A stretch of 48,744 bases of DNA from Patescibacteria group bacterium (GTDB taxonomy: Bacteria; Patescibacteriota; Saccharimonadia; UBA4664): assembly GCA_028288925.1 (NCBI GenBank), contig JAQGHG010000021.1, forward strand, positions 1-48,744, in the 5' to 3' direction. Shown in pieces: positions 17,024 through 27,114 of the stretch (the first letter of the stretch is position 1; every line of letters starts with the position of its first letter). The notes beneath the pieces are model-generated. The model searched no databases. It was given only the letters and a program-made list of their open reading frames with translations, and was not told where the DNA came from. A program made the translations under genes and the position numbers.

Positions 17024-17500
17024 CTACGCGTCGAGCTGTGTTTCCATGTGCTTAAGAAGCCGCCCGTTCAGTTCCTCCAGCTTCATCAGGGCAGTTTTAA
17101 ATTCGGTAATATCTATTGCTACAGTATAGATGCCAACGACTTGGCCTTTTTCTCTAATCGGCTCCACTCTAATGTCGTTATAATATATGTCACCCTCCTG
17201 TCCGCCGTTGAGTGTACTCTTAAACATCTCTCGTACGCCTTTTTTGCCTTCGAGCGCCCGTTTTTTGATAGCGGTGAGTTTTACCGCTTCACTAGCGGGG
17301 AGCCAATCAGCCTCGGTCTTGCCGATTAATTCCTCGCCTGCCATGCCAGGATGAGTGTTGAAGAAATGGGTATAGCGGAGGTTCAAATCTTGTTGCGATA
17401 TCGCGACTCCTGAGTTTCGCAAGGCGTTATCGAGGGTTGCCCGACTAGCCTTAATTTCTGATATAAGTTTTTTATGCCTATTCACATCTAGCTTCTCCAA
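17024..17500 (-). CDS. Stand-alone PAS-domain protein
   Basis: QDLNLRY..N....EELIGKT..D, PIRE.GQVVG....DITE followed by a coiled coil. Confidence 0.7.
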   Translation of the reverse strand: MEKLDVNRHKKLISEIKASRATLDNALRNSGVAISQQDLNLRYTHFFNTHPGMAGEELIGKTEADWLPASEAVKLTAIKKRALEGKKGVREMFKSTLNGGQEGDIYYNDIRVEPIREKGQVVGIYTVAIDITEFKTALMKLEELNGRLLKHMETQLDA

Positions 17501-18125: not shown

Positions 18126-18155
18126 AATTAAGAGGCACCTATGTGCCTCTTAATT
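18126..18155. terminator. Perfect 13-bp hairpin at the distal edge of the cassette array
   Basis: AATTAAGAGGCAC-CTAT-GTGCCTCTTAATT. Confidence 0.7.
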
Positions 18156-18435
18156 GCGGACTCGTGGAAGACGTCGCGGTGATGTGGCTTACTAACTAAC
18201 AAAAACGGGACTGGGACTTGGGGCTCGAACAGATTCTTAACTCGATCAGCTACATCTAGGAGCTTATTTATATCCTCCAATGTCTTCCACTTTTGATAAT
18301 ACAAAACGTAAATTATGAAATCAAGAGTCTTTTCGTATTAGTAGCCCGAACTGGGGGGGAACAGCTTCTCCTGAACGACGGCTTCCCGCTTGGCCGCCGA
18401 TGATGGTACTTCAGCCCGCTGTTGATATCGTGAGT

Positions 18436-18780
18436 CTATGCTGACTGAATGAGTCCGATGCTGTTGCCGTCAGCGTCCTTTACGTAGGCTACCAACATGC
18501 CTCCGCCCACATCTCTGGGCTCTTGCTGGCTCTCCGCCCCAGCCTCCAGCAGTGTTTGGAGGCTTGCTTTAATATCCGCGACATTGAAAAAGCCGACCGG
18601 GCCGGTCATGCCCAGCTGGTGGGCGTTGGGGTCCAGACCAAACTCTCGGTCACCGATCCTATAGCCGACATAATAAGCCTCGTCCACGTAAGGCTCGACT
18701 CCCAAAAGCGGGCCGTATAGTTTCTTGGCCGCCTCTAGGTCTTTGACGGGATAGTTAACGTGTTTGGTACCTTCGCTCAT
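18436..18780 (-). CDS. VOC/glyoxalase family protein
   Basis: PVKDLEAAKKLY..LLG, DVGGG...AYVKDADGNSIGL; GGAG RBS. Confidence 0.88.
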   Translation of the reverse strand: MSEGTKHVNYPVKDLEAAKKLYGPLLGVEPYVDEAYYVGYRIGDREFGLDPNAHQLGMTGPVGFFNVADIKASLQTLLEAGAESQQEPRDVGGGMLVAYVKDADGNSIGLIQSA

Positions 18781-18868
18781 GTAAGCACTCCCTAGCTAAT
18801 TGGGCTTAATTATACAGCAGGGCCACTAATTGATGTCATGACTAAGTCCAATTAGCCGAGCTCTAAGC

Positions 18869-19180
18869 CTAATAATACTTCTGCACCCACTCCAGCATCG
18901 TATTAATAGCGGGCAACAGCGCGGCGCCACGGTCAGTCATGGAGTACATCGTGCGAGGAGGGAACTCGTTGACGACTTCCTTGGTAACCATCCCGGCTTC
19001 TTCTATCGTTATGAGCCGCTGCGAGAGCGTCTTCGTGTTGATACCGCACAGCCCCTGCAGATCCGTGAACCGCTTCGGCCCGTCCCTCAGCTGCCACATA
19101 ATGAGCGCCGTCCATCTGTCGCCGACGAGGTCGAGCGCTTGTCTCAACGCGGCATCTTTTCTTCCGATATCTTCTTTCAT
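18869..19180 (-). CDS. HxlR family winged-helix regulator
   Basis: ALDLVGDRWT..GPKRF..INTKTLSQRL..PPRT.YSMT; ATG 19180 lies 6 nt after TATAAT. Confidence 0.9.
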   Translation of the reverse strand: MKEDIGRKDAALRQALDLVGDRWTALIMWQLRDGPKRFTDLQGLCGINTKTLSQRLITIEEAGMVTKEVVNEFPPRTMYSMTDRGAALLPAINTMLEWVQKYY

Positions 19181-19250
19181 GCTCAAATTATACATTACTT
19201 GACAATGTAAAGTCAAATACTTTACTATCTAAAGCTATAACGAGAACACT

Positions 19251-19820
19251 ATGAAGATCCAAATTATTATTGGCAGTACACGACCAAACCGCCTAGGGCC
19301 ACAGATCGCCGGCTGGATGATCGGGCACATGCCGCACGATCCGTCGGTCGAGTACGAGCTGATCGACCTCATCGACTTTAACCTCCCTCTCTTCAATGAG
19401 CCGGTCCACCCGGTCCACAACAATTACACCCATGACCACACGAAGAACTGGAGCCAGAAGATACACCAGGGCGACGCCTTCATCTTTCTAACGCCGGAAT
19501 ATAACGCTGGTTATCCAGCCGCGTTGAAGAATGCGATCGATTACCTCTTTCACGAATGGCGGAATAAACCCGTCATGATAGCAAGTTATGGGGTGAAAGG
19601 CGGCCCCTCGGCTTCTTCCCAGCTGCGCGCCGTCGCCGAACGGCTTACTATGCGCCCGACTCCGACTAGTCCCGCGTTCACTGTCCTGCGAGAATCCGGC
19701 GAGAGTGGTCATATTAAGGGTATTGAGGCCTCATTCGCGCCATATGAGGCGGACGTAAAGACAGCTGGCCGGGAGCTAATCGAGTTGGTCGTGACGACGC
19801 CGCAAGTGCAGACAGTATAG
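19251..19820 (+). CDS. NADPH-dependent FMN reductase
   Basis: IIGSTRPNR, TPEYNAGYPAALKNAIDYL..EW..KP. Confidence 0.92.
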   Translation: MKIQIIIGSTRPNRLGPQIAGWMIGHMPHDPSVEYELIDLIDFNLPLFNEPVHPVHNNYTHDHTKNWSQKIHQGDAFIFLTPEYNAGYPAALKNAIDYLFHEWRNKPVMIASYGVKGGPSASSQLRAVAERLTMRPTPTSPAFTVLRESGESGHIKGIEASFAPYEADVKTAGRELIELVVTTPQVQTV

Positions 19821-19931
19821 CAAATAATTTCTGGGGTGGAGCCACCCCGCATGTTTCGAACCGAGTGCTTTAAGGATGTAACGCACATAGTACAAGACCT
19901 CAAGTTTCGCTCGGTTACCATCATGCGTTAA
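19821..19931 (+). repeat. Junction repeat J6 (degenerate, hairpin arm lost)
   Basis: AATAATTTC-TGGGGTGG, then a frame (shifted +1) reading MFRTECFKDVTHIVQDLKFRSVTIMR*, homologous to the J1-J3 tails. Confidence 0.7.
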
Positions 19932-19940
19932 AATTATTTC

Positions 19941-20456
19941 ATGAATAGACTTATCTTCGTAACTGGTGCATCCGGTTCGGGAAAAACAACGGCCCTCAAA
20001 CAACTTGAACAAACTATTGGTGACTCATATACGTTCTTCTACTTCGATAGCGTTGGTGTGCCAACGCCTAAAGAAATGGAGAAGCAATACGGTTCGGGCG
20101 AAGAGTGGCAGAGACAGACGACAATTTTCTGGACGAAGAAAATGATGGAAAGAGCCGGTGATACAGTTCCTGTTTTGGACGGACAAATGCGATTGGCGTT
20201 CATTACTGATGCCTGCACCGCTAACGGTGTCAGCGACTACACCATCATATTGGTAGATTGTGACGATGCAGCCCGGCGTGCACGACTGGTCGGAAGGGCA
20301 CAAGAAGAACTGGCAAATGAGCAGATGATGAACTGGGCACGCTATTTGCGGGATGAAGCAAACTCGTCACAGCACGCGGTCATCATAGATAATTCGGCGA
20401 TGACGGTTGACCAAACGTGTTCTGCTTTACTAGAGATTATTGAAAAAACAAAATAA
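19941..20456 (+). CDS. P-loop NTPase / nucleoside-kinase-like protein
   Basis: IFVTGASGSGKTT Walker A, VLDG, R..RL..R lid. Confidence 0.8.
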   Translation: MNRLIFVTGASGSGKTTALKQLEQTIGDSYTFFYFDSVGVPTPKEMEKQYGSGEEWQRQTTIFWTKKMMERAGDTVPVLDGQMRLAFITDACTANGVSDYTIILVDCDDAARRARLVGRAQEELANEQMMNWARYLRDEANSSQHAVIIDNSAMTVDQTCSALLEIIEKTK

Positions 20457-20530
20457 TGCTCTGCTAAGCCGTTATTCGTGAATTAAGACTGGGGCCGGAT
20501 AGTGGACGTTAGAACCGCCCACATCCGACT
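20446..20530 (+). repeat. Junction repeat J5
   Basis: AACAAAATAATGC..AAGCCGTTATT arm, core TGGGGCCGG at 20490, tail WGRIVDVRTA (same type as J4). Confidence 0.75.
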
Positions 20531-20537
20531 CCTCCTT

Positions 20538-21668
20538 TTACGTAGTGAACAGATCGAGGTAGCGCCGGTATTCATAAACGCGTCCATAGGTCTTTTCTTT
20601 GTTGCGTGGGACCAGGACATCAAGTTTAACCAGCCGATCTATAACCTGCTGGGACCCAGCTCTGGTAAATCCAGTCCATCCCATCACCATGGCACTTGAT
20701 ACTACCGGCTGAGAGTAAAGTTTGTTCAAAACTTTCATACTGCTCTCGGACTCACGCTTTGCTAAAACTTGAATTTTTCGCATATCTTCATCGCGAATCT
20801 TGGCTATTTGATGGCATATACCGATGGCTTCTGTAGCCGTTTGGGCGACTCCTTCGGAGAAGAAATCAAGCCAGGCTTCTACTTTGCCCGCATGATATCC
20901 ATCAAGGCGGTTATAGTAGGTCTTTTGATGTCGCTTGAAGAAGCTTGAGAGGAACAATACAGGCTGCTCCAGCAGTCCATGGCGATACAGCTGTAGTGTT
21001 ATGAGTAGCCTTCCGGTTCGGCCGTTGCCATCTAGAAACGGGTAGATTGTTTCAAACTGTGCATGCATGAGCGCCGTCTGCACGAGAGGCAACGCGGCGG
21101 TTTCGTCGTGCAAGAAGTTTTCCAAATCTCCTAAGGCCCGCTTCATTTCGGCTACCGGCGGCGGCACGTACTTGGCGTCACTCGGCTTCGTCCCATCAAT
21201 CCAGTTTTGAGTTTGTCGAAAATGTCCTGGATCTGCGAAGTGGGTTGCTCTAGCTCCGAGCATCAGCTCGCGATGAAGCTCCTCAACCAGTCTCAGCGAC
21301 ATCGGCAAATCTGACAGACGGTTTATTCCATAGTGAAGCGCTTTCGTATAATGCAAAATATCATTGGCATCTGTTTCACCCTCGGCGATACCCGCCTCCA
21401 TCTCAATGGCGTCCACCATAGTAGCCTTAGTGCCCTCGATCTGGGCGGATGATGTAGCATCTTTCAGTACGAACATTTGCAAAAAGAAATCCACGTCCGG
21501 CAATTGATGGGTTGCGCCGTCTAATTTACCAACAAGTCCACGCGCCTGGTCGTACTTTTGCAAAAGTGGCAACGACAAGTTTAAGATGCCTTTTGGCGGA
21601 AAGGGGTCAGGAACAAAGGCCTTAAATCCCTCTGGCTGGGCAGTATTTGTGCCGATTGATGTATTCAT
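20538..21668 (-). CDS. Fic family protein (N-terminal inhibitory motif, C-terminal HTH) with catalytic His replaced by Tyr
   Basis: SSAQIEG inhibitory motif; FETIYPFLDGNGRTGR versus canonical HPFxDGNGR. Confidence 0.9.
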   Translation of the reverse strand: MNTSIGTNTAQPEGFKAFVPDPFPPKGILNLSLPLLQKYDQARGLVGKLDGATHQLPDVDFFLQMFVLKDATSSAQIEGTKATMVDAIEMEAGIAEGETDANDILHYTKALHYGINRLSDLPMSLRLVEELHRELMLGARATHFADPGHFRQTQNWIDGTKPSDAKYVPPPVAEMKRALGDLENFLHDETAALPLVQTALMHAQFETIYPFLDGNGRTGRLLITLQLYRHGLLEQPVLFLSSFFKRHQKTYYNRLDGYHAGKVEAWLDFFSEGVAQTATEAIGICHQIAKIRDEDMRKIQVLAKRESESSMKVLNKLYSQPVVSSAMVMGWTGFTRAGSQQVIDRLVKLDVLVPRNKEKTYGRVYEYRRYLDLFTT

Positions 21669-21764
21669 AGTTAGTATCTTTCTTAATCCGTATGTATACT
21701 AGAACATGATTTAGTATACATTACATTTTGAAAATATACTAAGTTTTCATTATTTTTTATACCA

Positions 21765-21868
21765 ATACAAAAAATAATGGCTATATGAAGCTATTATTTC
21801 GTAATAATTCCTGGAGCCGGATAGTGGACGATGTCGGAACCGCCACCCTCATGCATAAAGCGGCTTAA
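21765..21868 (+). repeat. Junction repeat J4
   Basis: ACAAAAAATAATGGC..AAGCTATTATTT..AATAATTCC arm, core TGGAGCCGG at 21812, tail WSRIVDDVGTATLMHKAA*. Confidence 0.8.
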
Positions 21869-22277
21869 GAGTGTCATCAACGATAGTTTGGGGCGTAATA
21901 AATCCCTGCCTCATATCTATTCCGAGCACACTCGCGCCCTCCTCGCAGAAGTTCACGTAGCTCTGCAACACAGGCAGCTCTGCCACATAATCAGCCGGCC
22001 AGATGAAAGCAAAGAAGCCCGGCTTTACCTCGACCAGCTCGGATCCGGCTTCACGTTCCCCGAAGTTGGCGATTTCTGCCGGCTTAAGCTCAAAATATGC
22101 TGCTTCAATATACGCGTCGACCGCGAATTGCAAGTTCAAAAAGGCGTAGTTATCAAACGGCGCATTAAAGACGCGGTTATAACCGGGAACGGTAACCTTA
22201 GTCAGCACTGCGGTCCGTCCTAGCGTAGCTTCAAGGCTGGCTTGTTTCATTAATGAACCATAAACAATGATATTCAC
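21849..22277 (-). CDS. Gamma-glutamylcyclotransferase family protein
   Basis: N-terminal IIVYGSLM, GY.RVF, ERE motif; AGGAG RBS. Confidence 0.75.
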   Translation of the reverse strand: MNIIVYGSLMKQASLEATLGRTAVLTKVTVPGYNRVFNAPFDNYAFLNLQFAVDAYIEAAYFELKPAEIANFGEREAGSELVEVKPGFFAFIWPADYVAELPVLQSYVNFCEEGASVLGIDMRQGFITPQTIVDDTLKPLYA

Positions 22278-22307
22278 GGAGAGTCTCCTTTTTATAAATT
22301 GGTTGTG

Positions 22308-22331
22308 GGGGCCCTGTCGAAACAGGGCCCC
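22308..22331. terminator. GC-rich hairpin between ligase and cyclotransferase genes
   Basis: GGGGCCCTGT-CGAA-ACAGGGCCCC; no U-run on the coding (minus) strand, so possibly stabilising rather than terminating. Confidence 0.5.
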
Positions 22332-22343
22332 TTTGTGAGTAAC

Positions 22344-23195
22344 CTAGCAACCGACTATCGGCGCAATGCTTTGCCAGTATGCTTCCAGGCAGCCATCACC
22401 ACGCCGACCCAACGGACGAATCTCCACCGTCAGCACATCGCCGTAGCGGCGCAGGCGGTAGTGCCACCAGATACTACGGAGAAACAGGTCAATGTCCAGA
22501 TTGGATACCGCCAACGGATTCAGGCGAACCGGCTGCCCCTGGTGCATCACGACATCATGCCGCGCCAACTGATTAGCGTAATCGGCCAAACTATCGAAAC
22601 CCTGGGGACCTGCGTACCGATCGGGCCGGTAGCTAGCGTTAGAGGCGGCAATGTAAGCCTGCCACCGCCGGTGGTTGGCCATGTAGTCGAGTCGCTGGAT
22701 CTCGGCTATCCACAGGGCGTTGACAACTCCGATGGCCTCCCACGGGTTGACATCAACCGTGAATTGAACCGACGAGCAACGGCATAGTTCCTCGAGCGCT
22801 GTCTGGCCATCCAGCTGGACCCACACTTGGTCACGTGGGTCACTGGACACATCGAGCAGACTATCAGCCCACAGAATTTCCGGGGCAAAGACAGGCCGCG
22901 CGTTGTAACGGGCTGCCACTCCGTAAAGCCAATTCAGCGCCTCGTGGGCCGCCCCTAGAAGCCCGTCAAAACTGCGGCATGGCCGAATGGCCAGCTCAAT
23001 CTTTTGACGACCCAGCTCCAGCGTTACCTCGCAGCCGAGCGGCCGGTTGTTGCTGGAGGCCAAGATGGCCCGGCTCACTGCCTGCGTGATGGGCTCTCCG
23101 CTCGTGGCGTCCACGAAATCGGTCTCAATTTCGCAGCCGATCTGCGCACCAGTCGTGGTCCGACCCGTTCCGTTGGTGAAGTGCTCCAGCAACAT
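22344..23195 (-). CDS. Glutamate-cysteine ligase (GCS2)/carboxylate-amine ligase fold protein
   Basis: IGCEIE, LELG..KIEL, SSVQFTVD, VEIRP motifs. Confidence 0.65.
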   Translation of the reverse strand: MLLEHFTNGTGRTTTGAQIGCEIETDFVDATSGEPITQAVSRAILASSNNRPLGCEVTLELGRQKIELAIRPCRSFDGLLGAAHEALNWLYGVAARYNARPVFAPEILWADSLLDVSSDPRDQVWVQLDGQTALEELCRCSSVQFTVDVNPWEAIGVVNALWIAEIQRLDYMANHRRWQAYIAASNASYRPDRYAGPQGFDSLADYANQLARHDVVMHQGQPVRLNPLAVSNLDIDLFLRSIWWHYRLRRYGDVLTVEIRPLGRRGDGCLEAYWQSIAPIVGC

Positions 23196-23231
23196 GACTT
23201 GCCTCTCTGGTTGCTCTCAACTCTCGTCCGC

Positions 23232-23261
23232 AAACGAAAGCCCCTCCCGGTTGGGAGGGGC
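23232..23261 (-). terminator. Attenuator terminator upstream of the ligase gene
   Basis: Minus strand GCCCCTCCC-AACC-GGGAGGGGC-TTTCGTTT. Confidence 0.75.
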
Positions 23262-23288
23262 CTAACTTTGTCTTATGACAGCATCAAA

Positions 23289-23348
23289 TCAGGCCGCTCC
23301 CCAGCGGTTATAAGAGATTAGATGAAGATGATGCTGACGTGGACTCAT
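23289..23348 (-). CDS. Putative leader peptide MSPRQHHLHLISYNRWGAA
   Basis: AAGGA RBS; its 3' end TGGGGAGCGGCCTGA is complementary to the terminator 5' arm TTAGGCCCCTCCCA. Confidence 0.6.
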   Translation of the reverse strand: MSPRQHHLHLISYNRWGAA

Positions 23349-23608
23349 AACTTTTCCTTAAAAACAAAGACCTTGAACGCATGGCACGGAAGTGCCCATG
23401 TATCCAAGGAACGAGAGGTAAATAAAAAGGACCTCCCGCGGTCCCATCCTTGTTCCTAAACCATCTCTGGCTTAGGCGCTCAGGCCGGCTCCGCTACTGC
23501 GACATCGGCTGCTTTATTTTACGGTTTGGCTTCCGTAGTGCATTTTGGCACTCAGCTCGCGGATCGTGACTCCGCTCAGACGCTTTATACATATTTAGCT
23601 GTTGACTC

Positions 23609-23637
23609 AACGTAACAGGCATAGGCCACTCTGTCAA
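23609..23637 (-). promoter_or_regulatory. Putative sigma70 promoter for the long leader
   Basis: TTGACA-N17-TACGTT with TGn extension. Confidence 0.5.
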
Positions 23638-23675
23638 TAGGAGTGACTCGAGCCCCATGATGGATTCGTATTTTA

Positions 23676-23817
23676 AACAAAAAATAACGGCTCCGTGAAG
23701 CCATTATTCCATAATAATTCCTGGGGCGAGCTAGGATTCAAGTTTCGAACAAGTTGCTTCGCCGAGATTTGCGCGATGGTGAACGATATTAGGCTTAAGT
23801 CGGTTCTTAATGCTTGA
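23676..23817 (+). repeat. Junction repeat J3
   Basis: Hairpin arm, TGGGGCGAG at 23722, tail WGELGFKFRTSCFAEICAMVNDIRLKSVLNA*. Confidence 0.9.
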
Positions 23818-24613
23818 GCCTTAGATTAACATTCTGGAAGCTTAGACCATCCTCGTCTTGGTAGCTTTGGCCGTCTTCGGTAAAGCCTGCATTTTTGAGG
23901 AGTTTGGCCGAGCCAGCGTTTTCCGTAAGGTAACGGGAGTACAAATATTCGTACTGACTACCGTTTTTCAGCCGTTCAACGAGAGTTTTAATGACAGCTC
24001 CCCCAATGCCTTGGCCGCGCACGCTAGGGTCGCCTAGCATGATGTGAATGGATGGCGCGAGGAGATACTGAGTGGCGTCTAAGCTGAGCCAAACCGCGCC
24101 AACAACCTTATCTTGGAACCGAATCATCCAAGTCTCTTGGTTGGTAGCTGTGATGAACTCTCTCATCCGCACCTGTTCTTCTTCCAGGGTTGAGGGTTTA
24201 TTATGCTCGTCGGTGTTGCCCATGAGTCGGAGGGTTTCGCGACCAGCTGGTCCTGCCAGCCACTTAACTGCCAACGGAGCATCTTGCTCGATATTTGGGC
24301 GCACCAGGGAAAGGTCGGCCAAGCGTGTTGATAGCTCTTTTAAGCGATAATTGGAGCCATTGGGATTACGGTCCAAGAAGCCCTGGCCAAATAGTTCACG
24401 CCTTAGCAGGGGCCAATCATTAAAGGTATGCCATCGCTTTAATATGTCGTTTACCTCTGCCTCGGTATAGGAGGTACTATATTCAGATTTGGTTGCTAAA
24501 TAAGCCAGTACCAGTAGCTGGTCCTTGTGCTTTGTAGGCCATTGCCTGACGCGACCTTTGTCATCTAAAAACTTGTGCTCATGTTGTTTATTCATGGCTT
24601 GCGGCTTGTTCAT
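23807..24613 (-). CDS. DUF2087 + GNAT acetyltransferase fusion
   Basis: N-terminal WP.K..YTEAEVN..L...DW..LRREL (DUF2087); C-terminal RGQGIG and N..S.KLL...GF (GNAT). Confidence 0.8.
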   Translation of the reverse strand: MNKPQAMNKQHEHKFLDDKGRVRQWPTKHKDQLLVLAYLATKSEYSTSYTEAEVNDILKRWHTFNDWPLLRRELFGQGFLDRNPNGSNYRLKELSTRLADLSLVRPNIEQDAPLAVKWLAGPAGRETLRLMGNTDEHNKPSTLEEEQVRMREFITATNQETWMIRFQDKVVGAVWLSLDATQYLLAPSIHIMLGDPSVRGQGIGGAVIKTLVERLKNGSQYEYLYSRYLTENAGSAKLLKNAGFTEDGQSYQDEDGLSFQNVNLRLKH

Positions 24614-24692
24614 GGATAAGGGCCATCTTCATAGATAGATTGTACCTTACTGGAGCCATTTGGGTTCGAAACCCATGAGGGTTGTTGACTTA

Positions 24693-24837
24693 AACAAAAA
24701 ATAATGGCTGTACAAAGCCATTATTTTACAATAATTCCTGGGGCGAGCTAGGGTTCAAGTTTCGAACAGAGTGCTACGCCGCAGTTTGTGCGATCGTGAA
24801 TGATATTAGGTTTCGTTCAGTATTAAGCTCATCCTAA
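24693..24837 (+). repeat. Junction repeat J2
   Basis: AAAATAATGGCT..AGCCATTATTTT hairpin, TGGGGCGAG at 24739, tail WGELGFKFRTECYAAVCAIVNDIRFRSVLSSS*. Confidence 0.9.
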
Positions 24838-24926
24838 AACTTCAAATCAGGTTGAAATCTTGGGGAGGGCCTCATCCCGCGATCGAACACGGGATGAGAT
24901 GTTACTTGCCCTCGCTTGCCGTGGGA

Positions 24927-25574
24927 TTAGGCGAGTAGCGGCCGACCCATCTTGACAGCGAACGCCTGTGCCACGGTGGGCGCTTCCAGAGCCCGGTGTA
25001 CGACCATGATCGGGCCTTGAGTCGGCACAACACCGTCGCGCAGAACTCGGAGGTACCAACCGCAGAGACCGTTGGCCGCCATGCGCTTGATCATCCGGTA
25101 GCGCCCGCCGCCGTAGTAGGTTTCGAGGGTCTCACATGGGGTACGCACCTTCGACACCTCGACGAGTGCCTCGCCCCACTCCCAGCGGTCACCGATGCGG
25201 ACATCGGCTTCAGAAGCACCTGCGACGCGAAGGTTTTCTCCGAGCGATCGGTTTTCCAAGCCTTCCTCGCCGAGCTCGTCGAGCCAGTGTGGGAGATGAA
25301 GTCCCCAGGGGTAGACGTAGACGGCCTTGTCGTTGCCGCCGTGGATCTGGCCGGGGTTGCCACCCTCAGTTTCCTTGGCGGTCTTGGGCCGAGTCTCGGT
25401 CGGCTGGTCGCCAGCCAGCCCGGTGAAGGTGAGGTAGAGCTCTCCCGCACCCGTGGGCTGCCGATCGATGCTTGACCAGAAAGGCTGGCCCTTCTTAGGG
25501 CCGCTGCGGTGAACGCCGATGGGTCGGGGCTGGCCGAGGCGAGTTTCGAGTAGGGTGATGGCCGGCGGCGACAT
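24927..25574 (-). CDS. MOSC domain protein (YiiM-like)
   Basis: GLAGD..HGG.DKAVY.Y, GENL, IGD..WGEA.VEVS..R.PC, GWYLRVL. Confidence 0.88.
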   Translation of the reverse strand: MSPPAITLLETRLGQPRPIGVHRSGPKKGQPFWSSIDRQPTGAGELYLTFTGLAGDQPTETRPKTAKETEGGNPGQIHGGNDKAVYVYPWGLHLPHWLDELGEEGLENRSLGENLRVAGASEADVRIGDRWEWGEALVEVSKVRTPCETLETYYGGGRYRMIKRMAANGLCGWYLRVLRDGVVPTQGPIMVVHRALEAPTVAQAFAVKMGRPLLA

Positions 25575-25685
25575 GTGTGCCTTCCAATCCAGGTTGTAGA
25601 GAACAGTAACTGCCGAATTTTATATTCTATACGATTAGTGGTCAAATAATTGTTTGGAAGAGATTATTGGGTCTTAAGTGTTGAG

Positions 25686-25822
25686 AACAAAATAATGGCT
25701 CTGAAAAGCCATTATTTTAGATAATTACTTGGGGCGAGCTAGGGTTCAAGTTTCGAACAGAATGCTACACCGCTGTTTGTGCGATGGTGAGTGATATTAG
25801 GTTCAAGTCGGTCATATCCTAA
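25686..25822 (+). repeat. Junction repeat J1
   Basis: AAAATAATGGCT..AGCCATTATTTT hairpin, TGGGGCGAG at 25730, tail WGELGFKFRTECYTAVCAMVSDIRFKSVIS*. Confidence 0.9.
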
Positions 25823-25830
25823 ACGCTGTG

Positions 25831-26907
25831 TCATTCTACGGTTTTTCGGCCGTTCCAAGTGCTTTCTTTAATAGCGGGCTGAGTAATTTCGACGATTTCG
25901 CGGGGGTTGATCTTGCCAAAAACATAACTTTCAATGTCGTCACCCCATTTATGCTCCACCGTTTGCCCGTCAATGTCCACCTTAACACCGGCATCAGGGC
26001 TGCGATCCTGCAGCTGCTGAAGCCACGATGGGGTCCGAACGGCGTGCTCGCGATAGGACACAATGTCTATTTTTGGAACTTCAAGCTTCAAAAGATAAAA
26101 CTTACGTTCTTCACCGCGCTTGCCATACTGCCGCCCTACGGCGGTCGCAATATCCTCATGCCCACTCACGGACAAAAATGGTGTAGCCGGATGCTCGCCG
26201 TGGAAGTGCCGCTCAACGGCCTCACCCGTCCAAGCTGATAGAGCCACGGCTTCGAAGTCTTCCTGTGGCTGATCGGAATCCGCGATAATGGTACTGAGAG
26301 GCGAAAGAAGACCATTCTCCCGTACGGACTGGAGTTCTTCGTCGGTGAGCCGAGTGCCGCGATACAAGATTTTCGTGCCCAACTCAGCTTTGAACTGTTC
26401 GCGAGCGCCTTGGTAATCTGGCGCGGTAATTCCGCCTGATTCGACCAGGGCCATGAACTCGGGAAGATGGGTCATAAAACCTGGGTCAAGGCTCAGCTGG
26501 CCGTATTGAGGATATTTTTCTCGGAGTTCGCCATAGGCTGTTTGCTCTTCTGGGCTCCCCCAGCCGCCCGTAGTTTTCCGCCATTGGTTGTCTCCGTAGG
26601 CTTCGCCGGAATAGTCCGCCATTACGGCACTCAGAAGCTCGTCTCGAGTGTGATGGGCTGGGTCCTCAAGCACGTCGAGTAACTGTTTTTGCTCTTCCGG
26701 GCCGCCCGTTTCGACTACGGCCTCATCTCTGCCGCGCAGACCGCGTCGTCGTCGCTCAAGGTTGCGAGGCGGCTTCGGGGTGCGCTCAGGCTGATCCGGT
26801 TCCTCGCGGGTTTGTTCTTGCTGCGCTAACGACAGTAAGGCGGTGTAATCCACGGACGGACCGCTTGGCTGATTTGGCTGGTTATTTTCGGTTTCTGCGT
26901 TTGCCAT
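25831..26907 (-). CDS. Hypothetical protein with putative C-terminal ADP-ribosyltransferase (R-S-E) domain
   Basis: Start ATG 26907 with AAGGGA RBS; LYRG, PFLSVS and DIESYVFGKI motifs in ART order. Confidence 0.55.
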   Translation of the reverse strand: MANAETENNQPNQPSGPSVDYTALLSLAQQEQTREEPDQPERTPKPPRNLERRRRGLRGRDEAVVETGGPEEQKQLLDVLEDPAHHTRDELLSAVMADYSGEAYGDNQWRKTTGGWGSPEEQTAYGELREKYPQYGQLSLDPGFMTHLPEFMALVESGGITAPDYQGAREQFKAELGTKILYRGTRLTDEELQSVRENGLLSPLSTIIADSDQPQEDFEAVALSAWTGEAVERHFHGEHPATPFLSVSGHEDIATAVGRQYGKRGEERKFYLLKLEVPKIDIVSYREHAVRTPSWLQQLQDRSPDAGVKVDIDGQTVEHKWGDDIESYVFGKINPREIVEITQPAIKESTWNGRKTVE

Positions 26908-26993
26908 GCTTTTGTCCCTTTGCTTTAGATATAGACTAGCATAAGCTCGTAAGATTACCGTTCGTGACCTATTTGTGTTTTTGTTCGATAAAT

Positions 26994-27036
26994 AACAAAA
27001 AACGGCTTTATAAAGCCGTTTTAAGCATAAGTGCAT
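26994..27036 (-). terminator. tRNA-His terminator, homologous to the hairpin arm of the junction repeats (J0)
   Basis: AAAACGGCTTT-AT-AAAGCCGTTTT; GGC-to-core distance 33 nt, as in J1-J5. Confidence 0.75.
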
Positions 27037-27114
27037 TGGGGCGAGAAATGGGGCTTGAACCCACGACCTCCTGGACCACAACCAGGCGCTCTAACCAACT
27101 GAGCTACTCCCGCC
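27037..27114 (-). tRNA. tRNA-His(GUG)
   Basis: Cloverleaf with G-1, anticodon GTG, C73 discriminator and encoded CCA. Confidence 0.96.

Follow-up and report, generated by a model that had tools for sequence, protein, structure and literature searches.

Genomic islands that accumulate in tandem at the 3′ end of an RNA gene are known from Dehalococcoides where the ssrA islands stand in tandem downstream of a t(m)RNA gene and are flanked by direct repeats of its 3′ terminus, upstream of which further sequence is conserved (McMurdie et al., 2011, PMC3146451). That account places a serine recombinase of ~540 aa on the reverse strand next to attL, in a frame that overlaps both the RNA gene and attP, and its authors suggest that only the circle, or proximity to the “3′ gene fragment” of a neighbouring island, may make the recombinase gene complete; 15 islands that lack the integration module are interpreted there as cis-mobilizable elements, and the Ccr recombinases of staphylococcal cassette chromosome (SCC) elements are named as DsiB homologues (PMC3146451). 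For streptococcal integrative and conjugative elements (ICEs; ICESt1/ICESt3) and cis-mobilizable elements (CIMEs), a review describes elements that retain attachment (att) sites without integration genes, lie in tandem at the 3′ end of a target gene and are moved in cis when the composite excises (PMC5704250). Here we analyse contig JAQGHG010000021.1 of a Patescibacteria group bacterium, the entire 48.7-kb length of which (48,744 nt) is called the window below; it belongs to a genome of 1.22 Mb in 26 contigs, 92% complete, and carries at the 3′ end of a tRNA-His gene an array of small gene cassettes set off from one another by copies of that tRNA end.

In staphylococci, SCC elements insert serially at the 3′ end of a conserved gene, rlmH/orfX, through CcrAB or CcrC, and composites there include ccr-less pseudo-SCC elements; the target is a protein gene, the cassettes are tens of kilobases long, and the recombinase gene is not known to extend across the attachment site. 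Integrons gather short, mostly single-gene and promoter-poor cassettes with adaptive or defence cargo at a fixed point, the newest next to the site, by means of a tyrosine recombinase encoded beside that site and of folded single-stranded attC sites. Integrase genes that contain their own attP are found in the Myxococcus phage Mx8 (intP) and in SSV-type archaeal integrases; insertion alters or splits the integrase frame, and their integrated and free forms encode different proteins. Systems of large serine recombinases (LSRs) use short att sites with a 2-bp crossover and recombine attP with attB only, and excision needs a directionality factor. Accretion at ICESt1/ICESt3 has reportedly been the subject of work by Pavlovic in 2004 and Bellanger in 2011.

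We read positions 19832–27045 of the window as a tandem stack formed by the serial, LSR-mediated accretion of at least six recombinase-less mini-cassettes (0.66–1.9 kb, with one or two genes) at the CCA end of tRNA-His, and put the probability of this reading at about 0.68. Such accretion explains jointly the repeats of the tRNA end, the coding-like tails, the hairpin that comes with each insert, the decay of the junctions with distance and the state of the locus in one relative, G004. A literature search of limited scope found no description of a tRNA-His mini-cassette array.

Junctions and cassettes at the tRNA-His end

In the orientation of the tRNA, a junction reads as a conserved arm of ~85 nt, the core CTCGCCCCA, a spacer of ~14 nt and a terminator hairpin. 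The core, or crossover region, is the last 9–10 nt of tRNA-His (27037–27046), which form the left half of attB. The array is laid out as follows, from the tRNA outward, with stop codons after the tails given in words.

27037–27113, minus strand: tRNA-His (GTG) with encoded CCA (ARAGORN; Rfam tRNA, 62.3 bits)
26985–27036, minus strand: right arm of J0, a 14-nt spacer and terminator hairpin (26999–27022; terminator scan), part of cassette 1 and missing from a contig of metagenome run X3
25739–27036, minus strand: cassette 1, 1307 nt core to core, one 358-aa open reading frame (ORF; 25831–26907), no family match
25730–25822, plus strand: J1, core and orphan LSR tail WGELGFKFRTECYTAVCAMVSDIRFKSVIS, then stop (tail profile E 2.2e-21); right-arm hairpin 25689–25718
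24748–25729, minus strand: cassette 2, 991 nt, MOSC-domain protein 24927–25574 (Pfam, NCBIfam)
24739–24837, plus strand: J2, core and orphan LSR tail WGELGFKFRTECYAAVCAIVNDIRFRSVLSSS, then stop (tail profile E 3.2e-22; P0054 tail E 3e-5); hairpin 24698–24727
23731–24738, minus strand: cassette 3, 1017 nt, DUF2087-GNAT protein 23807–24613 (Pfam)
23722–23817, plus strand: J3, core and orphan LSR tail WGELGFKFRTSCFAEICAMVNDIRLKSVLNA, then stop (tail profile E 9.1e-21); hairpin 23681–23710
21821–23721, minus strand: cassette 4, 1910 nt, T-box-like leader 23404–23589, 283-aa ORF 22344–23195, 142-aa ORF 21849–22277
21812–21868, plus strand: J4, variant core TGGAGCCGG and second-type tail (WSRIVDDVGTATLMHKAA, then stop); hairpin ~21771–21799
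20499–21811, minus strand: cassette 5, 1322 nt, Fic protein 20538–21668 (Pfam; PADLOC SoFic, 342.6 bits)
20490–20560, plus strand: J5, variant core TGGGGCCGG and second-type tail (WGRIVDVRTAHIRLL..); hairpin ~20449–20478
19841–20489, plus strand: cassette 6, 658 nt, 171-aa P-loop kinase-like ORF 19941–20456 (Pfam), on the strand opposite to the others
19832–19931, plus strand: J6, decayed first-type tail (..FRTECFKDVTHIVQDLKFRSVTIMR, then stop), core disrupted and frameshifted (tail profile E 1.7e-6, profile positions 8–28)
18126–19831: distal block with FMN reductase 19251–19820 (plus), HxlR 18869–19216 (minus) and VOC 18436–18780 (minus) (Pfam)

The initial annotation of this DNA had built the array on exact recurrences of the last 9 nt of the tRNA, and these lie where it placed them: TGGGGCGAG occurs on the plus strand at 23722, 24739, 25730 and 27037 and once on the minus strand, at 25170; base composition would predict ~0.49 copies per strand, and the plus strand has four. 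When a single mismatch is tolerated, the count rises to 19 matches against 19.65 expected, which is not above chance. The repeats proved longer than described, a repeat search returning a 124-nt unit three times (23673, 24690 and 25681; 76–83% identity to the reference copy) and a 58-nt unit five times (20445, 21767, 23677, 24694 and 25685), so that the repeat signal resides in the flanks of the core and not in the 9-mer with one mismatch. The degenerate cores were recovered at 21812 (TGGAGCCGG), 20490 (TGGGGCCGG) and 19832 (TGGGGTGGA), as was the tendency of junctions to decay with distance from the tRNA: J1–J3 keep the full 124 nt, J4 and J5 have the hairpin arm with a different left arm, and J6 has a frameshifted arm only. 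Comparison of first-type with second-type cores brackets the crossover to the last tRNA bases (..CCCA). Within its own genome the junction element is confined to the tRNA-His locus, and the GC content of the array is patchy (45–62%), with flanks at 58–65%.

Other parts of that description needed amendment. The combination of terminator arm and 9-nt core that it took for the junction is present but is only one half of it, the other side of the core being better conserved; the constant 33 nt from the GGC to the core holds at J0–J4, five of the seven junctions, and fails at J5 and J6; and 18126, proposed as the left limit, is not a junction. Beyond J6 (19832) neither arm nor core was found, and the distal block (18126–19831) is therefore only a possible member of the array. 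The hairpins of J0, J2 and J3 pass a terminator scan on the minus strand, which is the strand of the tRNA, and each junction arm sits in the 3′ untranslated region of its cassette gene, ahead of a terminator.

The junction arm and the recombinase tail

Read on the strand opposite the tRNA, the arm holds an open frame (WGELGFKFRTEC..MVNDIRFRSVL, then stop) that is homologous to the C-terminal tail of an LSR family. In the frame TGG GGC GAG, antisense of the tRNA end CTCGCCCCA, the tails of J1, J2 and J3 each end in a stop; J6 has the same type of tail, and J4 and J5 have a second type behind their variant cores. For the J4 tail, the resemblance to tails elsewhere in the family (e.g., P0012, ..WLSVVSEVRTAIRT..) is a visual judgement and carries no score. 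In G004, a 545-aa protein with Resolvase (PF00239), Recombinase (PF07508) and Zn_ribbon_recom (PF13408) domains adjoins tRNA-His and is encoded on the other strand; its sequence runs ..AKKMNAWGE and continues as antisense tRNA, passing through the core in the frame that the orphan tails use, and a matching tail lies 10.1 kb from the LSR, with older cassettes beyond. This shared frame, taken with the homology of the tails, places attP inside the 3′ end of the LSR gene, so that integration removes the last ~30 codons and deposits them at the far end of the insert; the junctions are attR-type scars, not novel cassette sites.

A search with the G004 LSR protein returned 407 relatives at E ≤ 1e-20, which share its domains (Resolvase, Recombinase, zinc ribbon), and the C-termini were examined in the best 120 of the 407. 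Nine of these 120 stop at ..SWGE or ..NWGE (P0002-6, P0013, P0023, P0031, P0040), as expected beside tRNA-His, and many continue from the tryptophan into antisense-tRNA-like sequence (e.g., WLRRPDSNR). An unsplit minority of the same 120 ends W..L...FRTEC(R/Y).EI..L..D..FRSLV (P0014, P0016, P0018, P0024, P0048, P0054, P0058, P0079, P0085); proteins labelled Streptomyces, Kitasatospora and Frankia belong to this group, and by tblastn the tail of P0054 (residues 489–523) matches the J2 arm at E 3e-5. For one unsplit member, P0016, the nearest relatives were uninformative (two plasmid-collection records at 29–30% identity and two phage-collection records at 26–28%), and an LSR profile gave no match among viral contigs.

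The arms also vary in the manner of coding sequence. A DNA profile yielded 43 distinct arms; the WGE frame stays open through 28 codons in 38 of them, as compared with 1 and 3 for the other two frames. Among codon pairs that differ by a single change (codons 10–28), the synonymous share is 58% versus 19% and 15% in the shifted frames and ~23% expected of random single changes, although the pairs are mutually related and the figures are descriptive, not tests. As some loci had come from a peptide pattern, the count was redone on those found by DNA search only, with 13 of 16 arms open and a synonymous share of 54% versus 22% and 12% in the shifted frames. Third codon positions of the opposite strand hold most of the variation, and serine codons alternate between TCN and AGY. 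Judged from its sequence, the arm is the orphaned 3′ coding tail of an LSR gene that spans its own attP.

Possible remnants of the LSR to the right of the cores were considered and rejected: the tblastn matches there were due to the antisense-tRNA part of the G004 protein, and the remainder contains stops and has no real likeness to it.

Relatives, metagenome contigs and the route of accretion

A comparison of 101 related genomes found junction DNA in 20, the genome of the window included, among them 15 of the 25 in the same family and 4 of the 10 in family f8. Junctions that are direct repeats of the tRNA-His 3′ end recur in relatives, and on the 10 of 12 relatives' loci that carry tRNA-His the copies lie downstream of it. 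With the tail profile, 26 sites were identified among the 401 genomes of the class; they are spread over 13 genomes, every one of family f1 or f8, and have open frames of 32–80 aa; at the metagenome loci 15 of 15 tails are orphans, and a pattern scan of genome contigs matched the G004 contig alone. In the relative G011 (locus L107, contig C20), a second contig also bears orphan tails, and the 15 kb covered there include no tRNA gene; this is either a displaced array fragment or an assembly break.

Comparison of the tRNA-His locus across related genomes, which had been suggested as a check on cassette gain and loss, found the cargo almost wholly different, with neither content nor order fixed. 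The ORFs between junctions are nearly all singletons (12 loci), the cargo of the window has only partial relatives elsewhere (50–66%), and the first gene shared with relatives, at ~83% identity, is the distal flank gene at 17024–17500. Out of 26 core-to-core or tRNA-to-core intervals, 25 measure 622–3180 nt and one, the G004 island, 10130 nt; a tblastn search of 30 loci for the LSR body found it only in that 10130-nt interval. A second relative, G030, has an island of ~10.1 kb at tRNA-His with a different serine recombinase and an attR ~10.1 kb away. A recombinase adjoining attL is thus present in G004 and G030 and absent from the window and its own genome. The window had been described as free of integrase genes, and so it is: in this genome PF00589 occurs only on contigs C11 and C9, and PF00239 only on C9, in a single match.

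The G030 recombinase (L050/L103) ends ..KKTANLNREMAVLINNWGE and has a terminator-like hairpin within its last 15 codons, so that the inserted element would provide a terminator for the tRNA. Across the order, 22 of 28 serine recombinase loci have a tRNA gene within ~4 kb and many of the proteins end antisense-tRNA-like, and an attP that spans the gene at a tRNA end looks, from these sequences, like a general habit. Serine recombinase genes of the same order (L037–L062) abut the tRNA genes for Asn, Gln, Ala, Leu, Val, Pro, Arg and Trp. On C9 of the window's own genome, a 541-aa serine recombinase (90906–92531, minus) ending ..TGRFELPTKSL, which is antisense-tRNA-like, lies beside two tRNA-Met genes and next to a tyrosine recombinase gene (93548–94048, minus), and the whole looks like a separate integrated element. 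On contig C19 of that genome, the last 10 nt of tRNA-Ala(CGC) (134580–134656) recur at +569 and +6549 downstream, the first time with 29 further identical trailer nucleotides and the second time followed by a hairpin, which may represent another small array of this type.

Parts of the array are present in four soil-metagenome runs of one study, whose assembled contigs were aligned at 90% likeness. One X3 contig, at a depth of 31.6, connects 25728 directly with 27036; it omits the 1307 nt of cassette 1, with 10 shared letters that equal the core, and has the J1 hairpin arm directly after tRNA-His. The J0 hairpin therefore belongs to cassette 1, which sits in front of an older junction. This contig, without cassette 1 and with its breakpoints in the 10-nt core, bears out for cassette 1 the idea that each insert brings its own terminator and sits in front of older ones. 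The proposal of the initial annotation that small inserts were added serially and site-specifically at the end of tRNA-His is supported, but the system is not an integron and belongs with the tandem accretion of integrative and cis-mobilizable elements, as in the Dehalococcoides ssrA islands. The search for excised circles gave a single circle-like joint, possibly an assembly artefact, in which a contig of run X1 runs from 25729 back to 24739 (991), the junction expected of a cassette-2 circle or of a tandem duplicate. A contig of run X4 (depth 2.4), in which 19825–20490 with the kinase cassette 6 is replaced by 34 letters, is a hint only. Depth is 0 over 25832–26983 in run X2 and low or absent over 22760–23527 in run X3, with no bridging contig in either case, and run X5 holds 0.06 of the words.

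How might such a stack grow? An LSR of the family whose gene crosses its own attP would integrate at the tRNA-His end, with the crossover just after the conserved Trp codon (TGG GGC GAG). Integration would trim the last ~30 recombinase codons, leaving them at the far end of the insert (attR), and the spacer and hairpin would be the tRNA-trailer/terminator half of the site; a new insert would land beside the tRNA with its own hairpin and older inserts would be displaced outward. Having no recombinase of their own, the cassettes would depend on an LSR-bearing element. In one route, hitch-hiking in cis, an LSR island would integrate at the tRNA, excise through its own attL and a more distal attR together with the intervening cassettes, integrate elsewhere, and leave again by its own attR while the cassettes stay. 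This is the route that uses canonical reactions only, and since it would rejoin foreign tails to a recombinase gene it would account for their continued protein-like conservation. Alternatively, cassette circles may be moved in trans, which would need recombination of an attR-like site with attB. The anatomy of the repeats, the homology and coding-type divergence of the tails, the LSR at this position and frame in G004, the turnover of cargo and the core-to-core presence or absence of cassette 1 are observations; that this LSR is the catalyst, in what sequence the inserts arrived and whether they moved in cis or in trans is what we infer from them.

Several observations weigh against serial LSR accretion as we have drawn it. 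In each cassette the left end is of the trailer type and the right end of the tail type, an arrangement that accretion alone does not explain and that would give a cassette circle an attR-like site. Characterised LSRs are not known to recombine an attR-like site with attB (10.1101/2025.05.02.651858), and movement in trans would thus need a non-canonical activity. A search of the own genome for the cognate LSR gave 0 matches at E ≤ 1e-10, although the gene may be absent from the assembly only, as the genome is 92% complete; the one serine recombinase present, on C9, ends antisense-tRNA-like beside tRNA-Met genes. The tail profile found no unsplit recombinase with the exact tail of the window in the 401 class genomes, the 15 metagenome loci or the viral contigs, and 0 of the 26 genomic and 15 metagenomic tails are joined to a recombinase body. 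At the 90% likeness setting, joints in the metagenome contigs may stem from other organisms, and the X3 contig may represent a close relative and not the same strain; the X1 joint is not counted as evidence, because its 32 shared letters (about one assembly word) and depth of 5.5 allow for a chimera.

A similar picture could be left by tandem islands that decayed in place, each unit having once been an LSR island of ~10 kb from which deletions left one or two genes between att scars, so that the units were never mobile in their small form. Islands of this kind, ~10.1 kb long and bearing an LSR at their tRNA-His end, are present in G004 and G030; integration, decay to a CIME and further accretion is the standard account in the review text (PMC5704250); the coding-type divergence implies that each tail came from a working recombinase gene; and deletion pressure is plausible in a genome of 1.2 Mb. 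We nevertheless consider decay unlikely, in that 25 of the 26 intervals are 0.6–3.2 kb long and 30 loci contain no LSR pseudogene remnants, what lies to the right of the cores does not derive from a recombinase, random deletions must repeatedly have stopped at the same place to spare the hairpin 33 nt from the core at J0–J4, and cassette 1 (1.3 kb, no recombinase) shows precise core-to-core presence or absence between close relatives.

The arms could also be a structured RNA or regulatory module, a tRNA-like minihelix ending in CCA and followed by a terminator, that was spread by homologous recombination. No junction has an Rfam match (E ≤ 1), however, and while a minihelix-like fold (GGCG.AGC...GUUCGAAACUUGAAC...GCUCGCC-CCA) is predicted at J1–J3 and a neater one at J5, the fold energies of J1–J5 are no better than those of shuffles (z −1.27 to +1.16), with J6 alone standing out at z −3.33, and compensatory change is seen in 1 of 29 predicted pairs. 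The position of the arms in the 3′ untranslated region of cassette genes, ahead of the terminator, would suit such a module, whereas the third-codon-position variation and the TCN/AGY serine switches fit protein coding and not RNA pairing. With Rfam, shuffles (except at J6) and covariation all unsupportive, the RNA reading of the arms was dropped for a coding origin, and as an account of the whole array it is very improbable. Least credible is an integron-like platform on which a tyrosine recombinase, IntI-like or Xer-like, would act on folded single-stranded sites: the cassette size, single-gene content, mostly uniform orientation and one fixed insertion end do recall integrons, but the only two PF00589 genes of the genome lie on other contigs (C11 and C9) and none beside the insertion site, the recombinase of a relative at the same site is a serine recombinase, to whose kind of tail the arm is homologous, and no attC-like folded site is supported, the folds of J1–J5 being no better than shuffles and the arm being derived from coding sequence.

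Cargo, meaning and relation to known systems

The proposed names of the cargo held in part. Pfam confirms VOC, HxlR, FMN reductase, P-loop kinase-like, Fic, DUF2087-GNAT and MOSC proteins. The names “ART-like” and “cyclotransferase”, given to the 358-aa and 142-aa ORFs, did not hold, as neither has a family match in Pfam, NCBIfam or PADLOC, and “ligase” is weak, the 283-aa ORF having only a sub-threshold match of 28 bits to glutamate-cysteine ligase/YbdK. The Fic protein of cassette 5 (20538–21668, minus) strongly matches the SoFic anti-phage defence model (342.6 bits), and islands of relatives encode Mrr, HNH, DUF3644 and Schlafen/AlbA_2 proteins; together these suggest that the cargo tends toward defence. 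In cassette 4, a T-box-like leader (23404–23589, minus) lies upstream of the 283-aa carboxylate-amine-ligase-like gene; it scores 36.1 bits and does not reach the gathering score of 93, its conserved AGGAUGGGACCGCG box overlaps a terminator at 23428–23445, and its stem I is very short. In a relative (G017, L030), the cassette nearest tRNA-His encodes a 418-aa class-II aminoacyl-tRNA synthetase-like protein (tRNA-synt_2b and HGTP_anticodon; 7252–8508, plus).

If the array arose by serial LSR accretion, it shows how a very small genome can maintain a flexible stock of accessory genes at a single tRNA gene while encoding no recombinase for it; the stock here comprises SoFic-type defence, acetyltransferase, MOSC, kinase-like and ligase-like genes. 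The system would also be a clean natural case of a serine recombinase that has its attachment site within its own gene, so that integration edits the C-terminus of the enzyme, and an orphan tail ORF in the W-G-E frame beside a tRNA-end repeat offers a signature by which such arrays can be mapped. A bolder idea, which we regard as doubtful, is that the locus is a serine-recombinase counterpart of the integron, with tRNA-His as a dedicated capture platform and single-gene, recombinase-less cassettes routinely gained and lost. The recombinase gene would be completed by the cassette tail present at the attR through which excision proceeds, each excision would give the enzyme a new set of 30 C-terminal residues (tail swapping), the orphan tails would be under protein-level selection, cassette mobility would be coupled to recombinase function, and the tail-less integrated form and the tailed free form could differ in activity and so act as a directionality switch. 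Were the cassettes indeed to move as units, genes could be stacked in the manner of integrons by a second route, unrelated in mechanism, and the system could provide serine integrases that target tRNA genes and have defined attB and attP sites.

The closest described system is that of the Dehalococcoides ssrA islands (PMC3146451), with which the array shares the direct repeats of an RNA gene end, the ~540-aa LSR at attL that overlaps the RNA gene and attP, and units without a recombinase. It differs from that description in its target, tRNA-His in an unrelated small-genome soil lineage; in units that are far smaller (0.6–3 kb, one or two genes) and recombinase-less as a rule (25 of 26 intervals); and in a cut-off tail whose homology to the native C-terminus in unsplit members of the family, and whose coding-like divergence, are shown. 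The streptococcal CIME/ICE composites, on the review text (PMC5704250), use tyrosine integrases and are conjugative elements in two or three large units, unlike the single-gene stacks seen here. SCC arrays are a functional analogue, alike in serial LSR insertion at the 3′ end of one gene and in their recombinase-less units. Stacking is common to this locus and integrons, but an IntI-type recombinase and attC features are not found here, and the self-spanning integrase genes of Mx8 and SSV encode tyrosine recombinases, that of SSV being split mid-gene, whereas here the last ~30 codons are cut off. Tandem-island and CIME accretion is thus the known part of this system, and what is new is the tRNA-His target in a small-genome soil lineage, the miniature and mostly recombinase-less units, and the origin and evolution of the tail.

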